Positions 9,374 to 52,265 of a stretch of DNA of 64,000 nt are shown one piece after another. The DNA comes from Moniliella sp. 'wahieum' (Eukaryota), in the NCBI GenBank assembly GCA_003971905.1, contig RSEE01000005.1, positions 620,001-684,000 on the forward strand. The letters run 5' to 3'. Position numbers and translations under genes: made by a program. Within the stretch, counting starts at the first letter, position 1, and every line of letters begins with the position of its first letter. A model generated the notes under the pieces. It ran no database searches. It was not told where the DNA came from and saw only the letters and a program-made list of their open reading frames with translations.

Positions 9374-10271
9374 GGCGGAGGAGGGGGCAGCGAAGGGGGT
9401 CTGCTGGAAGTGGAGGTGATCTGTGCGATGTTTCTGTTGCTGCCCTGCGTCCTGGGTCTGATTAATGAGCGCTTGGGTGCGCCGCCACAGCCCGCGTGAA
9501 GCTGCACTGGGAGCGTGAAGCTTGAAGCCTGGGCCGCAGTGCAGGGATCGGCGGATCGGCGCTGTGCGCACGCGTGCGCAGCGGGCCTGCATCATCGATC
9601 TGCATCACCCGTCGCGCATCGCCATGGAGCCGCAGCACTGGGCCCGTGCTGTGCCGCAGCTGAAACGGGCCGTGCCCGCTTGGCGCCACTGTGGGTGCGG
9701 AGGCTGTCCCCCATGCGCCCGTCTGCGTCTGGTGCGGCTCCGCGGGGCGGGCACAGCGCCTGTGCTGGACGGCGGATGGGGCCGGCGGGGGCCGGATGCA
9801 GCCGCAGATTAAGCGCTTAAGCGCTTAAAGCTTAAGCACTGGAGATCGGAGATTGGGCGCAGACAGACGCAGAGCCACAGCGCTGCCATCGGCCCATCTC
9901 CTCTGCACAGGCCAGCCGACTGGCTCGCACCCTTGCGCAGCCCCAGCATTGGACGGATGCCACCCCACCTCCATCTTGCGCGGGAAAGATATGATACGCC
10001 TGCGGATGTGGGACAACCAACGTCCTGCGCTCTTCGTTCGACCGCAATGCCTGTCATCCTAACATCTCCACGCTGCAACAGGAAAAACAGTGCTAAAAGA
10101 TCTGTTCCAACCATACGCAAGGGAAAACGTTGAATCCATTTACAGTTGTTGTGGGCAGAGAGGGCCATCGCGATTGCCAATCAGACCCAAACACATCTTG
10201 CTGGCTAGCAGCAACAGAGAGAGCAAGAGCGGGGTGCTAAGAACCAATCAGTTAGGCTTGTTGCAGCAACT

Positions 10272-13200
10272 CTACCTCCTTGCTCGTCCAGGGGTAGTGC
10301 GCTTGGGGATCGAGCCGGCCCAGGGCAAGCGGCTAGAGCCACGGAGCTGCTCGTCGATCGCTTGCGCGCACGCCCGGCCTTCGTGGATGGCCCACACCAC
10401 CAACGACTGGCCCCGACGAGCGTCGCCGCACGCCCAGACGCTCGGCACCGAGGTGCGGAATGGACTGGCACCCTTCGAGTCGGCAGCCAAAATGTTCGAG
10501 CGGGCATCCTGCTTGAGCGCCAACGACTTGATTGCCTCATTCTCCGGACCCAAGAAGCGAGCGCCAGCAGACACAAGTCACACGGCCACCGCTTCTCTGT
10601 GCCGGGCACCTTGTTCATCTGCCACTTGCCGCTCGCGTCCTTCTCCCAGGCAACCTCAACCGTGTGGACAGCGACCAGGTTGTTCTCCGCGTCCTTCTCA
10701 AACTTGGTCGTCGAGATTTGGTAGTGGCGCGGGTCTTGACCATAGTGGTCCGTCACCTCAGTGTGGCCATAGTCGGTGCGGAAGATGCGAGGCCACTGGG
10801 GCCAAGGGTTGTCGCGCGCGCGCGACGCTGGCGGCTGGGGCAGCAATTCAAAGTTCACCGACGGCCGCGCGGCGGACGGAAGTACCAATGCAGTCATTGC
10901 CCGTGTCGCCACCACCAATGACAATCACATTCTTCCCCTTGGCATTGTAGAAGTTGCCGTCCTGCAGCCCCGAATCCAACAGCGACTTGGTGTTGGCACC
11001 CAAAAAGTCCATCGCGAACAGCACCCCGTTCGCATCGCGGCCATCCACCCGCAAGTCACGCGGCCAGGTGGCGCCCGTGGCAAAGACCAGTGGTCAAACT
11101 GCTCAGCGAGCTCCGCCGCATCCACGTCGCGTCCCACCTCGACGCCACACTGGATATCCACACCTTCGGCTTGGAGCAGCTCGGCACGACGCATGACCAC
11201 TTCCTTGTCCAGCTTCATGTTGGGAATGCCATACATGGCGAGACCAAACGGACGGTCGGCGCGTTCAAAGACAGTGACCGAGTGACCCGCCTTGTTGAGT
11301 TGATCGGCACATGCCATCCCAGCCGGACCGGAACCGACAATGGCCACCGTTTGCCCGTCCGGTGCGTCGGCGGCTGCGGCTTGACCAGGCCCAGTTCAAA
11401 CGCCTTGTCAATGATCGCTCGCTCCACCGTCTTGATGCCTACGGGCGATTATGATGCCCAACACGCAAGCGCCTTCGCACGGGGCAGGGCACACCCGGCC
11501 GTAAACTCGGGGAAGTTGTTGGTGGACATTAGCTTCCAGTACGCTCTTCCCAGCGACCGTTGAACACCAAGTCGTTCCACTTGGGGATCACATTGCTGAT
11601 CGGGCAGCCCGTGTCAGATTGGCAGAAGGGCACACCGCAGTCCATGCAACGCGCCGTTTGCACCTTCAGCTCGGCATCGGTCAGGCGTTGGACAACTCCT
11701 TAAAGTCCTTGGCGCGCACGTTGGGTTGACGGTACTTCTCCGCGCGACGACGGTACTTTTTGAACCCACGAAGCTTGTCCAACTTGGCTAGCGCCGTCTT
11801 GGCCCTCTCGGCATCCAGCAATGCATCTTCAATGTCCACTTCGGCCGGCTCGGCCTTGGCGGCGGCCGCCTTCTCTTGCTCCTGCTGTTCTTCCTCCAAC
11901 AGGCTGACTTGAGAGCTGTGCCGCGACAGGGTACCCAGCAAGTCGACGTGGCTCGAGCGTTTCTTCTCGGCCGCAGCCTTGGCCGCCTCCTCCTCCAACA
12001 CACGCTTGTAGTCGTATGGCATGACCCGCACAAAGCGCGGCAAAAGATGATGGAAGTCGCGGATCACATGCTCGGCCACCGTCGAGCCCGTGTAGTGGCG
12101 GTGGTTCTCAATCAGGTTGCGCAGCTCGGCAATCTCGTGAGGGTCCTTGACCGGGCCCAGCTCAACCATCTCGGTGTTGCACCGCGAGTAGAAGTCGCGG
12201 TTCATGTCCAGCACATATGCAATGCCGCCACTCATTCCGGCCGCAAAGTTGCGCCCAGTGCTGCCCAGCACGACGACGCGACCACCCGTCATGTACTCGC
12301 ACCCGTGGTCCCCGACTCCTTCCACCACCGCATGCGCCCCTGAGTTGCGCACCGCAAAGCGCTCGGCGGCAATCCCACGGAAGTAGGCATTTCCGGTCGT
12401 TGCTCCATACAAGCACGTGTTGCCGATCAGAATGTTCTCCTCTGCCTTGAACGCCGAGTTCTTGGGAGGGTAAATGATCAGGCGGCCGCCCGACATGCCC
12501 TTGCCCACATAGTCGTTCGCATCGCCCTCCAGCTCGAGCGTGATGCCCGGCGCCAAGAACGCACCGCACGACTGACCCGCCGATCCCTTAGCATTGATGT
12601 GGATCGTGTCCCGCGCCAAGCCCTCCTCGCCATACAGCTTGGAGACACGGTAGGACAACGTGGCCCCCAGTGCCCGGTCGGTATTGACCACCTCGCAATC
12701 CACTTGGACCGGCAAGCCCTCCATCAACGCCGGCTCAGCTTCTGAGATGAACTTGTTGTCCATCCGTACGTACAGGCGGTGGTCCTGCTGACGCACCTTG
12801 TACGTCGCCGCACCCGGACGCAGCTCATGCGCCGGCTTAAGGATCGCGCTCAGGTCCAGCTTGGAGGCCTTGACGTTGCGGCCCGTGTAGTCAGTCTTGA
12901 GCAGATCCGACCGACCCACCATCTCATTGATCGTCCGCAGCCCCAGCTTGGCCATGATCCCCCGCAGCTCCTCGGCCAGGTAGTAGAAAAAGTTGATCAC
13001 ATGCTCCGGCTGGCCAGCAAACTTTTCACGCAAGTCGGGGTCTTGGGTCGCAATGCCCACTGGGCACGTGTTGAGGTGGCAGTTGTGGGCCACCACGCCA
13101 TCGGCCAGCTGGAAGTGACCGCCCGACACTTCCACACCACGGTATTCCCGCTCGCCGGCCAACTTGGCCAACGCAAACGGCGCCACCTCCAGCTCCGTCG

Positions 13201-16200
13201 CCGAGGCGGGCATCCGCTTCCGCTCATACAGCAAGTAAGGTTGGATCTGCACCAAGCCCGCGCCGCTGAGCGTCACCACCGAAGCACCCTGCTCCGTAGC
13301 CACGCCACTGGTAAAGATACCCAGCTCTTGCGCCAGCAAAGCCACATCCTCCACCAGACCCGCATGGCCTTCGGCAGTCTGGGCAAAGACGTACTGTCCA
13401 CTGGACGGAGGAAGGATCCATCCGTGTCGAGCAGACCGGCCAAGATGGCGCGCTTGGCCTCGGCCGAAGGGAAGGCGTGCAGAGGGATGCGGCGCTCCTT
13501 CTTGCCAAGCAGACCCAGTTCCGCCAGCTTGGCCTCCAACGGGTTCCACCCATCGGCAACGACAGTGTGCTTAAACATGTCGGCACGAGCAAATGTGGTG
13601 GAGCCGACGAGGTCACCAACAGCGGTCACCTTACGGCTGACCACGGTGAGCTCCGCTGCACCCTCAGGACGCGTCGCGTTCAGCTGCTCCACGTACTTGT
13701 ACAGCCACACGAGCATTTCGGCATCTGATGCAGCCAGCGTAGCACGGTGCGCATCGCCATCGCCCAGCCAAGCGCCCACAAAGTACGCCTCGTCTTGCGC
13801 CGCCCGCGCTTGCGCCTGCGCGACTGGGCGGAAGAGGCGGAGCTTGTCGTGCGAGTGGCCAATCAGGTCTTCCGCCGTCACCTCGAACCGGTCACCGTCC
13901 AAGACGAGGCTTGGCTCCACAAGGCCGTGGTGCTCCGACAGGAGCAAGCTGTTCACCAGCTGCGCCTGCTCCTCGGACGCCAGCGAGAGCGAGACCTTGT
14001 GCAGACCACCACAAGTACACTCGCTTGCCTCTTGGATCTTTTCCTTGAGGAGAGCAAGGCGGCCTTGCAGCTGGGCCCCGACGCGGATAAAGGGCTGCTC
14101 GGCCGGCGCGGGCGTTGCAGACGCCTTCGACTCTTCGGCCAACACCAGGGCATCGACGGGGCCCAGGGCTACTGTGTCGGCGGCAGGCTCAAGGGCAGGG
14201 GTGCCAGGGGCGGTCGAGGAAGACGCATCGGAACCTTGGTCGCTCTCAAGCTCGGGCATGGTCGTGCCCAGGTCAAAGTGAACGTGGGACAGTGGACGTG
14301 CGGTGGATGCAACTGCTCGGGTCAAACGGCGAGGCGCCAGTTGCATGGGCACGGTGCCGGTGCCCGCTGAGCAAGTCCTTGGTGATCATCTCCGAGCTAA
14401 GCACAGCCGTCAGGTCAGCATACCGTCTCAAATGGGGAAATGACAACCAACGTACCCAATCTTGTCGTCCATATCGTCTTCGCGGTCCAAGTCTTGGACG
14501 TCGCCCAGCGATACTAGGTCGTGCATCATGCACGACGCCGCGTGCTCCGCCGCCTGGTCCAGCTTCTTGTCCGACACACAGCGCGTGTAAAACTCGACCG
14601 TCTTGTTCTCCACCATCGGCTCCACACCCACAGCAGCCAAAGAGAGAATGTGGTCGGGCGTGCACTCAAAGTGCTTCTCTGCACCGTCAATGGTGTAGCT
14701 CACCTGGTACATCGTTCCCGTTTCCACGTCGCCCACCGACATGACCAGGACGGGGTTGTTGCTGTCGTCCAGCAGAGCATCACCCAGGGCAATGTCGCCA
14801 ATGCGCTTCGTCGCACCACCAACGGTGCGCACCAGCGTATCGACACCCAAGCACTTGCGCATCATGATGCACCCCATAGCAATCAGAGGAGTGGTGGCAA
14901 ACCCATACTCTTCGGCACCCAGCAGCGTAGCAATGGCCAAGTCGCGACCGGTACGCAACTGACCGTCAGTCTGCACTGTTACACGGCCACGCAGGTCGTT
15001 CAACACCAGCGTCTGGTGCGTCTCGGCCAGACCCAACTCCCAGGGCAGACCGGCGTACTTGATGCCAGTCCAGCGCGACGCACCTGTACCACCGTCGTGA
15101 CCCGAGACCAGCACATGGTCCGCCTTGGCCTTGGCCACACCCGCTGCCACAATCCCCACACCCACTTCGGATACAAGCTTGACGCTCACCCGTGCGCGCG
15201 GGTTGGCACACTTGAGGTCGTAGATGAGCTGCTTCAAGTCCTCAATCGAGTAAATGTCGTGATGGGGAGGAGGGGAAATAAGACCGACGCCGGCAGTCGA
15301 GTGACGCGTACGCGCAATCGACGGCGACACCTTGTGGCCCGGCAGCTCTCCACCCTCACCCGGCTTGGCACCCTGCGCCATCTTGATCTGCAGCTCGTCA
15401 CTGTCGGCAAGGTAGTTGGACGTGACGCCAAATCGGCCGGATGCAACCTGCTTGATCTTGGACCGCAGCGAGTCGCCATTGGGGAGCGGGATGGAGCGTT
15501 CGGCATCCTCACCACCCTCACCCGTGTTGGATTTGCCGCCGAGACGGTTCATGGCAATGGCCAAGGCCGAGTGAGCTTCCATCGAGATGGAGCCGTACGA
15601 CATGGCACCAGTGCAGAACCGCTGCACAATCTCCGTCCAGGGCTCGACTTGGTCCACCGGGATGGCACGCACCTTGCTCAAGTCAAAGTCGAGCAAACCA
15701 CGAAGAGTGGTGGCCTTGATGGATTGAGTGGCCTGCTTGCTGTACTGGTCCCAGGCAAACTGGTTCTTTTCCCGCGCCGCATCTTGCAAGTTGGCAATGG
15801 AAACGGGGTCATTCACGTGCGCTTCACCGCCATCGCGCCAGTGGTACTCGCCACTCTCGGCCATTACAGGGGGCAGCACCGTGTCCTGCGAGGGCCAGCC
15901 GCGGTTGTGGAACTCAAACGCGTCCATGGCCATCAGTTCAAACGTGATCCCTTGATACGGCTCGCCGTGCCGGCAAAGCAACGATCAATCACCGAATTGT
16001 CCACACCGAGTGCTTCGAAAATCTGCGCACCCTTGTACGATGCCAGCGTCGAGATGCCCATCTTGGACATCACCTTCAGAATCCCGCCATCGACACCGTG
16101 CAGCCAATTGTCAACCGCCGTTTCGAGCGTAATGTCCTCCTTGATCAAGCCTTCGCGGTGGACCTTGGCCATCACCTCAATCGCAAGCCAAGGGCAGATG

Positions 16201-18542
16201 GCGTCGGCGCCATAGCCAGTCAGAGCGCAGAAGTGGTGCACCTCCCGTGCCTCAGAAGTCTCAATCATCAGGGCCACCTTGGTACGCGCCTTGTTGCGGA
16301 TCAGGTGGTGATGCACTCCCCGATGGCCACGAGCGAGCTGAGGGCAACCCGCTCTGCGCTGACCGCACGGTCCGACAAAACCACAATGGGTGTAGCCCTC
16401 GGAGATGGCAGCGCTGGCTTCGGCACAGATGCGGTCAATCGTCCGTTCGTACCCAGTAATGCCATCGGCCTTGGGGAAGGTAATGTCAATCACCTTGGTC
16501 TTCCAGTCCTCGACAGCTCGTGGATGCGCTTGATCGCGTTCATTTGCTCAATCTTCAGCATAGGCGAGGGAAGCAAGAGGCGGTGAGCCTGCTTCGGGTT
16601 CATCTCCAGCAAGTTGCCCTCTGGGCCGACATACGTCTCCAGCGACATGACCACCGACTCACGAATCGGGTCAATCGGAGGGTTGGTCACCTGCGCAAAC
16701 AGTTGGCGGAAGTACTCATACACCTGCCGCGGAGCATCAGCAATGCACGCCAACGGTGCGTCGTTGCCCATCGAGCCAAGGGCTTCCTTGCCAGACGCGC
16801 CCATGGGCAGCATAAGCAAACTGATCTGCTCATTGGTGTAGCCAGCCGCCTTGATGCGCGGATCGGTGCTGAGGGTCGTCGCGTCGAGCTCGGGGGCGAT
16901 TGGAGCATTGGCACGGGTACGGCTGCAAATGTCGGGCAAGTGCAGCAGCTGCGCTTCGAGCCACGCGGCAAAATCGGCCGACTGCGCCGTGGTCATCTTC
17001 AGCTCCTTGTCATCGACCAGCCGGCCCTCCTTGGTGTCCACCAACAGCATCCGCCCCGGCTGCAACCGGCCCTTGGCCAGCACCGTCGCCGGATCAATGT
17101 GGATCGTGCCCACCTCGGACGCGCAAATCATAATGTCATCGTCGGTGATCACGTACCGGCACGGCCGCAAACCGTTGCGGTCCAAGTTGGCGCCACAGAA
17201 GCGGCCATCCGAGAAGGCAAACAAAGCAGGTCCATCCCAAGGTTCGGTCATGCAGGCCGCCCAGCGGTAAAACGCAACCTTCTCCGGCTCCATCTGGTCC
17301 TGCTTGCCTTGCCATGCTTCGGGAATGAGCAGCATGATGGCTTGCGGCAGCGTCAACACGCCATTGACCACCAACAGTTCCAGCACATTGTCAAATCCGG
17401 CCGAGTCCGATCCTCCCGCTCAATGATCGGGTAGAGGCGGTCGAGGTCGGTGCCAAACACTTCGGAGCGAAGCATGCCTTCACGTGCACGCATCCAGTTT
17501 TTGTTGCCGCGGATCGTGTTGATTTCACCTGGTGGCAAAGCGTCAGTACAGCAGAACATGCCATGGAGTGCAAGAGGGGAGGTGCGTACCATTGTGGGCT
17601 GCCCATCGCATTGGTTGGGCACGGTCCCAAGAGGGGAAGTGTTGGTCGAGAAACGCGAGTGCACCAACGCAAAATGCGACTCGTAACGGGCATTGAGTAG
17701 GTCATAGTAGTAATCGTACACCTGCCGGGGCGCGAGCTGGCCCTTATAGACAATGTTGCTCGGAGAGAGAGAGCAGATGTAGAACCAGTTGGCCAGCCCA
17801 ATCTTGTGCGTGGCCGACTTGCGCAGCACATACAGTTGGCGATTGAAGTTCTTTTCATCAAACGCAGCCTCAGTTTGTGCTGGCGCCGAACCAGGACCAT
17901 AGTGCTCCTTGGCCACAACGAAGGGCTGGAGGGTCTTGGGTTCCTTGCTGAGGGCCGCTGGGCCAAGGATGGAGTTGTCGACACTGACATTGCGCCAGCA
18001 CAAGACACGCAGCCCTACCGAGTCGGCGACCGACTCAAAGATCTTTGGTGGTCCGCGCGCAGTCGGTCGTCCTTGGGAGTAAAGAAGACGTTGCCCACCG
18101 CGTACTGGCCCTCGGGGGAAGCGTGATGCGAAAGTCCATCTCGAGCTCGCGCGGGGAAGAACGAGTCGGGGATGCCGGTCATGCAGCCAGCGCCGTCACC
18201 ATCGCGCGCGTCGGCGCCTGTGGCACCGCGATGGGTCATGTTGCAGAGAACAAACTTGGCATCCGACACAATCTTGTGGCTCGGCTTGCCCTTGATGTGG
18301 CAAATGAAACCCACACCGCAGCTGTCCTTCTCGTTTTCGGGATCGTACAGGCCCTGGGCAGCCGGGAGCGAATCGCCGCCGTAGGACGCGTGCGAGCGGA
18401 TGACATTGTGGAAGCCATTGTCGTCCAGGTTGGCCGAGGTGGTCACCTCGGCGTGGTCGCCCCGCGGAGGAGCGACGAGGGGGTCGTTCAGGTCGGGCTG
18501 TTGGGGCTGCACGGGCAGGGCGTCGACGCGGACGGCGACCAT
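10272..18542 (-). CDS. GLT1: NADH-dependent glutamate synthase (fused alpha/beta), intein-containing
   Basis: EKDSCGVGF (Ntn Cys), [78 protein letters not shown]-domain [13 protein letters not shown], beta-subunit [21 protein letters not shown] and [14 protein letters not shown]. Intron 17529-17589 splits AHNG/EIN. 3' end approximate. Confidence 0.97.
13082..14853 (-). mobile_element. Intein with LAGLIDADG homing endonuclease inserted in GLT1
   Basis: Removing it restores the conserved [16 protein letters not shown]. Block A CLGVDTLV, block [12 protein letters not shown] (TxxH), block [11 protein letters not shown] (13756-13785), block [11 protein letters not shown] (13417-13446), block [15 protein letters not shown], blocks [23 protein letters not shown] followed by Cys+1. 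Confidence 0.95.
14397..14455 (-). other. Spliceosomal intron inside the intein coding sequence
   Basis: Donor GG|GTACGT, branch GCTGAC/CCTGAC, acceptor TTAG; 59 nt. Unspliced read-through meets in-frame TGA stops. Confidence 0.8.
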
Positions 18543-20219: not shown

Positions 20220-21607
20220 TTACACCTGCCGGTGGATCATGCTCTCCCGACCAGGCCCAACGCCAATGTACTCAATTGGCACTCCGAGGAACTTCTCGCA
20301 GAACTCAATGTACTTCTTGCAGTTGACGGGCAATTGGTCGTACTCGGTGATCTTCGAGATGTCCGTCTTCCAGCCGGGCAGGGTCTCGTACTTGACCTCA
20401 ACCTGAGCCAGCAACTCCAAGTCGGGAAGGGAAGCCAGTTCGACGCCATCGTGGTAGTAGGCCACGCCCACATTGAGCTCCTCCAGGGCGTCGAGAACGT
20501 CGAGCTTGGTGAGGTTGAGGCTGTCGTACCCATTGATCATGTGCGAGTACTTCATCACCACCAAGTCCAGCCAGCCGCACCGGCGACGACGGCCGGTCGT
20601 CACACCCCATTCCGCACCCACCTCTTGCAAGTGGACACCAGTCTCATTGAGCTGCTCGGTAGGGAAGGGGCCTGCGCCGACACGGGTGGTGTACGCCTTC
20701 ATCACACCAATCGTCTTGCCCACCAGTTTGGGGGGATGCCAAGGCCAGTGCACACCCCGCCAATAGCCGTCGAGGACGAGGTGACGTACGGGTAGGTACC
20801 ATAGTCAATGTCAAGCATCAACGCATTGGCGCCCTCGACGAGCACACGGCGGTTCTGTGCCAACGCGGTGTGTGGATAAAGGTGACACCATCGACAACAA
20901 AGGGGCGCAGACGCTCGGCAAACGCACGGTACCGGGCAATCTCACCCTCCGTGTCGTACTCAAAGTGACCATAGCGCTTAAACCGGCCTTCAACCAGGTT
21001 ACGGAACTTGGTCGCAAACAAGTCTTGGTCATACAGGTGGTGCACACGGAGGCCCGAGCGCGAAGCCTTGGAACCGTACGCTGGCCCAATACCCTTCTTG
21101 GTGGTGCCGATGCTGCTGCCACCCAGCTCGACTTCCTTCAAGCCATCGACAACCTGGTGAAAGTCAAACACCAGGTGCGCACGGTCCGACACAAACAGCC
21201 GGCCACTCACGTCGAGACCCTTCTTCTCCAGCGTGTCGAGCTCAGCAAAAAACGAGGGCACATGCACCACCACCCCAGACCCGATAAACCGGCACAGCGC
21301 GGGTTGACCAGGCCCGAGGGCAGCAGGTGGAAATCAAACTTGGTCTTGACCTTGTCGGGACCCACGTGGGCCACAATGGTATGGCCAGCGTTGTTGCCGC
21401 CAGCGCAGCGAGCGCACACGTCCATGGCACCAGCAAGGATGTCACAGAGCTTGCCTGCAGAGCAAGGAAGGAGTCAGGAGAGGGCGAGGGAGGCGGGGGA
21501 GGAAGAGGGGAGGGACTGACCTTTGCCTCGTCGCCCCATTGGGCCGAGGACAACGCTGGCGCGGCCCTCCTGGGCGCCGGAGGCGGCGGTGGCCGGGGAT
21601 GGGACAT
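20220..21607 (-). CDS. ADE12: Adenylosuccinate synthetase
   Basis: [81 protein letters not shown]. Intron 21455-21520. Confidence 0.97.
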
Positions 21608-48891: not shown

Positions 48892-49767
48892 TGTCACGGG
48901 CGGGCGCCGCCAGGGGCCCGCCCTGGGGTTTTTGGGGTACAATCCCTTAGGCGACGGTAGGTCGACTCACGGTAGTTTCGGGCTTAGGCTGGTTGGTGTG
49001 TCCGAGCGGAGCTAGGGACGAGGAGAGGCCTTTGGTGGGGCGGCTGCACGTGTGGCAAGGCTGCGTCTGCACCGGCTTGGGCCGTAGTAACGTGTCTGAA
49101 GCCTCCGGGACTTAGGGACGGGGAGGAGCGGCGGACAAACACTGCCTTAACTGAGACTGGGAATCGCCGCGACCGAAGGAGGGCTCGCGCGATTGGACTG
49201 ACGAAGGGCTGGAGGACGAGGTCGGAGGAGAAGTCGGACGCTAACAAGAAGAGCTGCCTGTACTGGATCAATTGGCTGGAAACGGGCAGGAGTCGGACAG
49301 GATGGGCGGGAAAGGGACGAAGGTGGAGACGAGAGATGACGAGAGGATGACGAGAGGATGACGAGAGGATGACGAGAATGGAAGGTGGGGGAAAAGATCC
49401 CCATCAACCAGGGGTACAGGCAGGATCAAAAGGGAAACGGATACAAGAGGGGGTGTAGAAAGGAAGACATGTCAAAAGCGGGGTTGGTCGCCGCAGGCGC
49501 GACCGAGAAAGGAAACGGAAACGGGGACGGGACGGCAGATGCCGCCACGGCACTGGAAGCTCGGTGGCCTTATTTAGGCCGGCCGACTTGGACTTGGGCG
49601 GGGGGCGACTATTGTCGCGCGGAGCATGGCCCTTCGGCCACGATACTTGATTTAGCCAACCATCATCACACTTGGTTGGCCTGCGGAGCACGCTCTACTG
49701 GGCATGTGCGGAGCAGGCGGGCCTTAGCTTGGGTCGGACCATCTCGTGTCCGCCGCAGCCCGTGACA
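48892..49767 (-). repeat. 3' LTR (876 bp)
   Basis: TG...CA ends with a 10-bp terminal inverted repeat; nearly identical to 51389-52265; contains ~4 copies of 11-bp GAGAGGATGAC. Confidence 0.92.
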
Positions 49768-50007: not shown

Positions 50008-50265
50008 GCACGCCCCTCCTTCCTTCGAGCGTCGGGGGTGCGAGTCAAACTCTTCTCATTCGCACGCCCCTCCTTCCTTCGGGCGTCGGGGGCGCGAGTC
50101 AAACTCTTCTCATTCGCACGCCCCTCCTTCCTTCGAGCGTCGGGGGCGCGAGTCAAACTCTTCTCATTCGCACGCCCCTCCTTCCTTCGAGCGTCGGGGG
50201 CGCGAGTCAAACTCTTCTCATTCGCACGCCCCTCCTTCCTTCGGGCGTCGGGGGTGCGAGTCAAA
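50008..50265. repeat. 54-bp tandem repeat, ~4.8 copies
   Basis: Unit GCACGCCCCTCCTTCCTTCG(A/G)GCGTCGGGGG(T/C)GCGAGTCAAACTCTTCTCATTC, visible as 18-aa repeats in the ORF track. Confidence 0.95.
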
Positions 50266-51388: not shown

Positions 51389-52265
51389 TGTCACGGGCGG
51401 GCGCCGCCAGGGGCCCGCCCTGGGGTTTTTGGGGTACAATCCCTTAGGCGACGGTAGGTCGACTCACGGTAGTTTCGGGCTTAGGCTGGTTTGTGTCCGA
51501 GCGGAGCTAGGGACGAGGAGAGGCCTTTGGTGGGGCGGCTGCACGTGTGGCAAGGCTGCGTCTGCACCGGCTTGGGCCGTAGTAACGTGTCTGAAGCCTC
51601 CGGGACTTAGGGACGGGAGGAGGCAGCGGCGGACAAACACTGCCTTAACTGAGACTGGGAATCGCCGCGACCGAAGGAGGGCTCGCGCGATTGGACTGAC
51701 GAAGGGCTGGAGGACGAGGTCGGAGGAGAAGTCGGACGCTAACAAGAAGAGCTGCCTGTACTGGATCAATTGGCTGGAAACGGGCAGGAGTCGGACAGGA
51801 TGGGCGGGAAAGGGACGAAGGTGGAGACGAGAGATGACGAGAGGATGACGAGAGGATGACGAGAGGATGACGAGAATGGAAGGTGGGGGAAAAGATCCCC
51901 ATCAACCAGGGGTACAGGCAGGATCAAAAGGGAAACGGATACAAGAGGGGGTGTAGAAAGGAAGACATGTCAAAAGCGGGGTTGGTCGCCGCAGGCGCGA
52001 CCGAGAAAGGAAACGGAAACGGGGACGGGACGGCAGATGCCGCCACGGCACTGGAAGCTCGGTGGCCTTATTTAGGCCGGCCGACTTGGACTTGGGCGGG
52101 GGGCGACTATTGTCGCGCGGAGCATGGCCCTTCGGCCACGATACTTGATTTAGCCAACCATCATCACACTTGGTTGGCCTGCGGAGCACGCTCTACTGGG
52201 CATGTGCGGAGCAGGCGGGCCTTAGCTTGGGTCGGACCATCTCGTGTCCGCCGCAGCCCGTGACA
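51389..52265 (-). repeat. 5' LTR (877 bp)
   Basis: Partner of 48892-49767; only two small indel differences seen by eye. Confidence 0.92.

Follow-up and report, generated by a model that had tools for sequence, protein, structure and literature searches.

Inteins of GLT1, the fungal gene for NADH-dependent glutamate synthase, have been described from ascomycetes. Carriers of an intein at the insertion site GLTi-a are Debaryomyces hansenii, Pichia (Meyerozyma) guilliermondii, Podospora anserina, Phaeosphaeria nodorum and Fusarium fujikuroi (PMC5784728, PMC5056185, PMC1635734). The accessible text of one catalogue holds five GLT inteins, all of Pezizomycotina or Saccharomycotina, and 15 basidiomycete inteins (PMC5784728). 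Two further sources, in their accessible portions, name GLT1 inteins from ascomycetes only (PMC1635734, PMC1508164). The electron chain of the host enzyme includes a native [3Fe-4S] cluster (PMC8097209, PMC5775586). The locus described here lies in a stretch of 64,000 nucleotides (nt), termed the window, from a basidiomycete assembly (GCA_003971905.1, Moniliella sp. 'wahieum', contig RSEE01000005.1, positions 620,001 to 684,000). Its GLT1 gene is interrupted at GLTi-a by a predicted endonuclease-bearing intein, and the intein is itself interrupted by what seems to be a small spliceosomal-type intron. The whole is explained best, and with good confidence, by an old, vertically inherited class 1 intein of one exobasidiomycete lineage that contains an intron, the breaks in its reading frame being sequencing errors.

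The insert occupies 1772 nt of the minus strand between the host motifs GCIMMRK and CHLNTCPVG, and its flanks match Pfam Glu_synthase (PF01645) at positions 2-317 and 319-368. Insertion directly before CHLNTC corresponds to GLTi-a, with the same C-extein start as the F. fujikuroi intein, whose C-extein begins CHLNTCPVG (PMC5784728). A protein search of the genome (69.5 Mb, 223 contigs) found GLT1 on four contigs, referred to as C5 (the window), C9, C18 and C27; counts from this search are lower bounds. All four copies carry both the intein and its intron. The residues of a class 1 intein are present: Cys1, a TxxH block B (CTPDH, also found in 15 of 15 ascomycete GLT1 inteins compared), a terminal His-Asn and Cys+1. 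The C-terminus reads VAHN before Cys+1, with a gap in the Asn codon of copy C27. Both LAGLIDADG motifs (GAWLGDG and AGLLDTDG) keep their Asp in all four copies and in P0001, a protein of a third related lineage. The length of the insert is not divisible by three, and the first intein frame reaches a stop soon after 14456. Removal of 59 nt as an intron leaves 1713 nt, or 571 codons, with two 1-nt breaks. When the intron is taken out and the breaks are read as errors, removal of the intein restores Glu_synthase. On these sequence features the insert is best taken for a canonical class 1 intein that bears an endonuclease and belongs to the fungal GLTi/CHSi family, with protein splicing predicted. 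A sequence-only reading of the window had reported a full-length 1772-nt intein with Cys1, TxxH, His-Asn, Cys+1 and two acidic LAGLIDADG motifs. Every one of these elements can be read in the sequence, and the LAGLIDADG intein is indeed full-length; what that account omitted is that the 1772 nt are not one frame and include the 59-nt intron and a +1 break.

A model of the C18 copy shows a two-domain LAGLIDADG fold at a predicted local distance difference test score (pLDDT) of 80.6; fold prediction without an alignment gave a pLDDT of 42. The best Foldseek matches of the C18 model are PI-SceI (E 1e-11) and I-DmoI (6e-7). Profile searches of the genome matched only the C18 copy with PF14528 and returned nothing with PF05203. 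As PF05203 misses even the present intein, the scan is uninformative about other inteins in this genome.

The intron inside the intein was located by scanning the gene for donor-branch-acceptor patterns. Four candidates were obtained, two of the usual short length. One lies in the N-extein and serves as an internal control; the other lies in the intein. Donor, branch and acceptor of the intein intron are preserved in all four copies, while identity of its interior between copy pairs is only 59-61%; the intein exons reach 80-86% in the same comparison, the N-extein intron 51-53%. Retention would introduce a stop codon in all four copies, including the one in which the stretch measures 60 nt. 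The stretch shows the sequence marks of a U2 intron: a GT donor, a branch site, a YAG acceptor, a frame broken on retention and a fast-evolving interior. P0001 was called on unspliced DNA, and its similarity to the window protein begins exactly at the acceptor position, so the third lineage probably carries the same intron. The 59 nt therefore seem to be a spliceosomal-type intron gained within the intein and presumably removed from RNA. An alternative intron at 14423-14313 was rejected; it sits behind an in-frame stop and would delete sequence conserved in P0001. The intron is a more unusual feature than any in the sequence-only reading. Introns adjoining inteins, not within them, are mentioned in the accessible text of PMC1635734 and PMC1508164, and introns at empty intein insertion sites in that of PMC10710043. 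The literature searched, mostly without subscription papers and InBase, held no report of a spliceosomal intron inside an intein or of a basidiomycete GLT1 intein. The earlier suggestion that this allele is undescribed stands to that extent, although its site is the known GLTi-a.

The four copies form two pairs. Their exteins are 98-99% identical within the pairs C5/C27 and C9/C18 and 87-90% identical between them. Each copy adjoins an adenylosuccinate synthetase gene in syntenic arrangement, and the combined GLT1-ADE12 region on the four contigs shows the same two pairs, about 99% identical within and about 88% between. The pairs point to a hybrid or polyploid, or to an allopolyploid or multi-haplotype assembly of a smut-related fungus. 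No empty GLT1 allele occurs among the four copies found. The sequence-only reading had noted a frameshift near 13405; a -1 break is present there, but a second break (+1, near 14290) had been missed. C18 is open across 13405, and P0001, which comes from an independent assembly, is open across both positions. Once both introns are removed, extra bases confined to one copy are discarded and gaps are treated as N, each of the four copies yields 2729 codons without a stop, against 29-81 stops per copy under five other column choices. Frame-breaking gaps, counted after single-copy insertions had been dropped, are equally dense in exteins (75 in 25.9 kb) and intein (20 in 6.9 kb), at 2.9 per kb each. 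Some gaps are shared: five of 1 nt in the exteins of C5 and C27, two in the exteins of C9 and C18, and one at 14539 in three copies. The breaks near 14290 and 13405 are thus probably sequencing or assembly errors. The adenylosuccinate synthetase gene of the window (20220-21600, minus strand) is also broken over several frames, as fits an error-rich assembly.

Divergence between the pairs dates the allele relative to its host. Synonymous divergence (dS) amounts to 0.77 for the intein, compared with 0.70 and 0.56 for its two exteins. The ratio of nonsynonymous to synonymous divergence (dN/dS) is 0.13 (0.09-0.18) across the intein and 0.03 in the exteins; within the intein, the N-terminal Hint part stands at 0.09, the endonuclease at 0.10 (0.06-0.15) and the variable insert at 0.17 (0.09-0.27). 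G+C content at third codon positions (GC3) is host-like (0.75-0.77 in the intein, 0.74-0.79 in the exteins). Just upstream of the site dS drops to 0.35, which is within chance, since 19 of 206 dS windows are lower; so is an unchanged run of 11 codons at the junction. Since dS matches that of the exteins, dN/dS indicates conservation and GC3 is host-like, the allele appears to predate the subgenome split and to have been conserved since. It is, by these measures, old, vertically inherited and conserved, not a recent arrival.

The host gene groups with Tilletiaria (Exobasidiomycetes) within Ustilaginomycotina, a placement confirmed by sequence comparison, so that the basidiomycete-like GLT1 of the sequence-only reading can be narrowed accordingly. 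Among the best 120 of 7985 matches, the named GLT1 proteins nearest to the window copy belong to Ustilaginomycotina, and of the matches listed that of Tilletiaria anomala is closest (81% identity). In a FastTree tree of 46 exteins T. anomala is sister to the window copies and P0001 (support 100), and its GLT1 site is empty; Tilletia indica (75-76% identity) falls on a separate branch. The other proteins among the best 120 comprise 111 of 119 with an empty motif, five fragments that do not span the site and three with gene-model gaps there. The search left out proteins longer than 2438 amino acids (aa), so carriers could not appear and the count of empty sites is biased. The models P0117 (Rhodotorula pacifica), P0041 (Phlebia brevispora) and P0118 have no residues exactly around GLTi-a; these gaps may stem from miscalled introns, or an intein could be hidden there.

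A search of longer proteins gave 23 matches, 15 of which are GLT1 with an intein at GLTi-a that aligns end to end with the window intein. Five of these 15 are named ascomycetes, and in the 46-extein tree all 15 exteins form a single clade, separate from the basidiomycetes. The earlier statement that GLT1 inteins are known mainly from a few ascomycetes fits the accessible literature (PMC5784728, PMC1635734, PMC1508164). Alignment with known GLT1 inteins extends over all blocks at 30-34% identity. Over 465 columns, identity to ascomycete alleles is 32-37%, whereas between ascomycete subphyla, at comparable distances of the exteins, it is 44-57%. The best matches of an unfiltered search are likewise GLT1-type inteins. 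It also returned six GLT-type fragments, some of which could be basidiomycete. Other members of the wider family were encountered. P0137 (GLT1 of Diversispora epigaea) has an intein (PF05203, E=4e-22) that spans residues 1033-1470 approximately and ends THN before Thr. Its insertion point in GLT1 is a different one, some 150 residues upstream of GLTi-a, and the intein does not figure in the accessible GLT list of PMC5784728. P0151, P0159 and P0152 are same-family inteins in other fungal-type hosts (Sel1-repeat protein, kinesin motor domain). Free-standing GLT1-type inteins without exteins, several of them without Cys1, are represented by P0149 (Lipomyces tetrasporus), P0153, P0155, P0156 and P0163; P0149 nests among GLT1 inteins in the tree. 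These may be HO-like domestications or gene-calling fragments.

The intein trees bear on how the intein entered the lineage. With distant outgroups the window allele is sister to the whole family, with a long-branch warning (three fragments left out of the tree). Without them (20 rows left out as long branches, fragments or near-duplicates) it lies inside the family at a deep node, its attachment spread over many nodes: 548 of 1000 bootstrap placements fall at the commonest node and 10 with Saccharomycotina. Its branch length in the trees is 1.7 to 3.1. Inteins of close relatives evolve at 4-5 times the rate of their exteins, and the summed extein path from the Dikarya node of about 0.59 gives, as a rough figure from different models, an expected intein branch of 2.4-3.0. 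Retention from the Dikarya ancestor fits the observed length on this reckoning; it requires about seven losses on the sampled tree, whereas one old transfer requires fewer events. In our judgement an old transfer has slightly better than even chances, the donor being a carrier that is unsampled and probably an ascomycete. Retention from the Dikarya ancestor is a serious but lesser contender, and non-allelic entry from another host gene is doubtful. Recent transfer from a sampled lineage is excluded.

The proposed course of expression involves two kinds of splicing. (i) The pre-mRNA would lose two small introns, one within the intein. (ii) The resulting precursor of about 2730 aa is predicted from its conserved residues to splice by the Cys1/Cys+1/Asn route. 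(iii) Protein splicing would rejoin C-x5-C-x4-C, so that the [3Fe-4S] cluster could form. (iv) The freed PI-SceI-like endonuclease would cut empty GLT1 alleles. Persistence of the intein is proposed to follow from obligatory exact excision at this site combined with homing recurrent enough to conserve the endonuclease. The insertion point separates C(-6) from C(+1) and C(+6). The three Cys of this motif, whose spacing recurs in the 1EA0 sequence, we take to be the cluster ligands in glutamate synthase. Because the motif is split, the unspliced precursor is very likely to be without enzyme activity; the dependence of the cluster on splicing put forward in the sequence-only reading is upheld in that splicing is needed to rebuild the motif. 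The site being already known, this dependence applies equally to all GLTi-a alleles and is not special here. The mechanism itself is not new, and the idea of cluster gating is equally testable on known yeast alleles. A regulatory role for GLT1 inteins has already been proposed in Candida (PMC5056185).

Other explanations were weighed against an old intein with an intron. A recently acquired and currently spreading allele would fit the 111 empty sites in nearly all-basidiomycete GLT1 proteins, the empty site of sister Tilletiaria, the retained catalytic Asp and the low endonuclease dN/dS. It is nevertheless unlikely: the closest outside intein is about 34% identical, dS and GC3 follow the host, the intron is shared, no co-conversion dip exceeds chance, no copy found is empty, and the count of empty sites is the biased one. 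Recent acquisition, a strong form of what the sequence-only reading had entertained, is not supported, given the intein's presence in both subgenomes and a third lineage, the same dS and GC3, and the gain of the intron. The allele may still be mobile, in that its endonuclease is conserved, though all four GLT1 copies found are occupied. That the window copy, or the whole C5/C27 pair, is a real pseudogene with a genuine break at 13405 is still less probable. The break and the five 1-nt extein gaps common to C5 and C27 speak for it, and homeolog loss is possible in polyploids. Shared gaps occur in both pairs, however, and the one at 14539 would stop the frame in three copies; extein dN/dS for C5/C27 is 0.04-0.08, and the adjoining adenylosuccinate synthetase gene is split over frames as well. 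It is hardly credible that the 59 nt are a damaged coding stretch. The copies do differ in length (58-60 nt), and no transcript was seen, but its donor, branch and acceptor have been preserved and its interior has diverged as in the N-extein intron, the 60-nt copy contains an in-frame stop, and removing the stretch restores the spacing found in ascomycete alleles.

A regulatory reading would make the intein a domesticated element, with the [3Fe-4S] enzyme assembled under the joint control of intron retention and of protein splicing that responds to redox state or metals. Two Cys of the motif are found at the splice junction and shortly past it, all four copies conserve seven intein Cys, among them those of a CxC that ascomycete alleles also have, and a retained intron places a stop ahead of the endonuclease. 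Conditional splicing is reported for MoaA and Prp8 inteins (PMC10663303, accessible text). Against this, inteins occupy conserved sites for reasons of persistence (PMC5784728, accessible text), the same 111 relatives make the enzyme without an intein, and the intein intron resembles the ordinary other intron of the gene; such domestication has a low probability. The fuller version is just as improbable: a smut-related clade would have kept a GLT1 intein lineage, very old or a relic, that gained an intron and now forms a two-step switch of RNA splicing and redox- or metal-sensitive protein splicing. If true, retention would stop translation ahead of endonuclease and C-extein, protein splicing would decide whether the ligand loop is rejoined, and RNA splicing would control both nitrogen assimilation and homing. 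The old, inherited, intron-bearing intein remains our preferred explanation, and several observations weigh against it. The Hint and LAGLIDADG_3 matches score below or at their Pfam cut-offs, the 13405 gap is common to two copies, every copy in the assembly has breaks, and the intein trees leave the allele unplaced. The dN/dS intervals of the endonuclease (0.06-0.15) and the variable insert (0.09-0.27) also overlap, and conservation may accordingly reflect folding and not specifically cutting.

With this allele, the range of a rare nuclear intein comes to include Basidiomycota as well as Ascomycota; the allele is the most divergent of the set examined. Production of the enzyme would require RNA splicing, then protein splicing. 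An intron gained within an intein and kept across three lineages would indicate long residence, and a conserved endonuclease in an old allele bears on how homing endonucleases escape decay after fixation. Surveys of inteins in predicted proteins can miss those split by introns. The four homeologous copies, of two ages, are a ready test set for splicing and homing.

Table 1. Coordinates of the GLT1 locus and its intein in the window (all on the minus strand).
Feature	Position	Strand	Details and basis
GLT1, NADH-dependent glutamate synthase	10252..18542	minus	2729 codons with intein, two introns removed, assembly gaps as X
61-nt spliceosomal intron in N-extein (internal control for intein intron)	17529..17589	minus	signals; 51-53% identity between pairs, 87-89% in exons
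First Cys of C-x5-C-x4-C, N-extein position -6	14869..14871	minus	sequence; ligand role presumed
Intein coding region, GLTi-a site	13082..14853	minus	571 codons plus intron; sequence, homologue alignment
Intein exon 1, N-terminal Hint part	14456..14853	minus	Cys1 at 14853; block B CTPDH 14664-14650; PF05203 E=0.0013, under curated cut-off
59-nt spliceosomal-type intron in intein (probable), phase 2	14397..14455	minus	GTACGT donor, CTGAC branch, TTAG acceptor
Variable insert region of intein	14023..14396	minus	shorter than in ascomycete alleles (alignment); dN/dS 0.17
Extra base, C5 copy only	14290 (approximate)	minus	probable assembly error; P0001 reads through
LAGLIDADG homing endonuclease domain	13229..13794	minus	block C GAWLGDG 13776-13756; block E AGLLDTDG 13440-13417; dN/dS 0.10
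Missing base	13405	minus	common to C5 and C27, absent from C9, C18, P0001; probable systematic assembly error
C-terminal Hint part	13082..13228	minus	ends His-Asn at 13087-13082
C-extein start	13064..13081	minus	Cys+1 13081-13079, Cys+6 13066-13064, second and third Cys of C-x5-C-x4-C

Elsewhere in the window, positions 50008-50265 hold a 54-nt tandem repeat (4.8 copies, 97%). It lies between two 11-nt arrays of identical unit (49328-49377 and 51826-51875), about 2.5 kb apart, and could be a mobile element.

Among known systems, PI-SceI, the VMA1 intein of Saccharomyces cerevisiae, is the closest solved structure by profile (E about 1e-19) and by fold, with Hint and two-motif LAGLIDADG parts in common. 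It differs in host gene and site and shares 17-23% identity; its splicing and homing are experimental, whereas those of the window intein are predicted. The nearest precedent for the nesting is provided by nuclear group I introns of myxomycetes, where small spliceosomal introns interrupt mobile endonuclease genes (PMC9548176, accessible text). That case shows such an intron to be compatible with an active enzyme, but concerns His-Cys enzymes of group I introns in ribosomal DNA, without protein splicing. Conditional splicing has been established by experiment for the redox trap of Pyrococcus abyssi MoaA and for Zn/Cu inhibition of Cryptococcus Prp8 (PMC10663303, accessible text); it is the model behind the redox- or metal-conditional control suggested in the sequence-only reading, which for the window intein is hypothetical. 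The Prp8 and RNA polymerase inteins of Cryptococcus, Tilletia and Salmacisia, the last with Prp8 and RPB2 inteins, resemble it as inteins of smut-related fungi, though GLT1 is not among the hosts named in the accessible text (PMC5784728; bioRxiv 10.1101/2023.05.24.542141). The ascomycete GLTi-a inteins share its host gene, site, blocks, CTPDH, CxC region and two acidic LAGLIDADG motifs, and are of similar size (515-665 aa in 15 database alleles, 571 aa here). The window intein is set apart from them by its basidiomycete host, an identity of about 34%, the deletion of part of the insert region and the probable intron within it.

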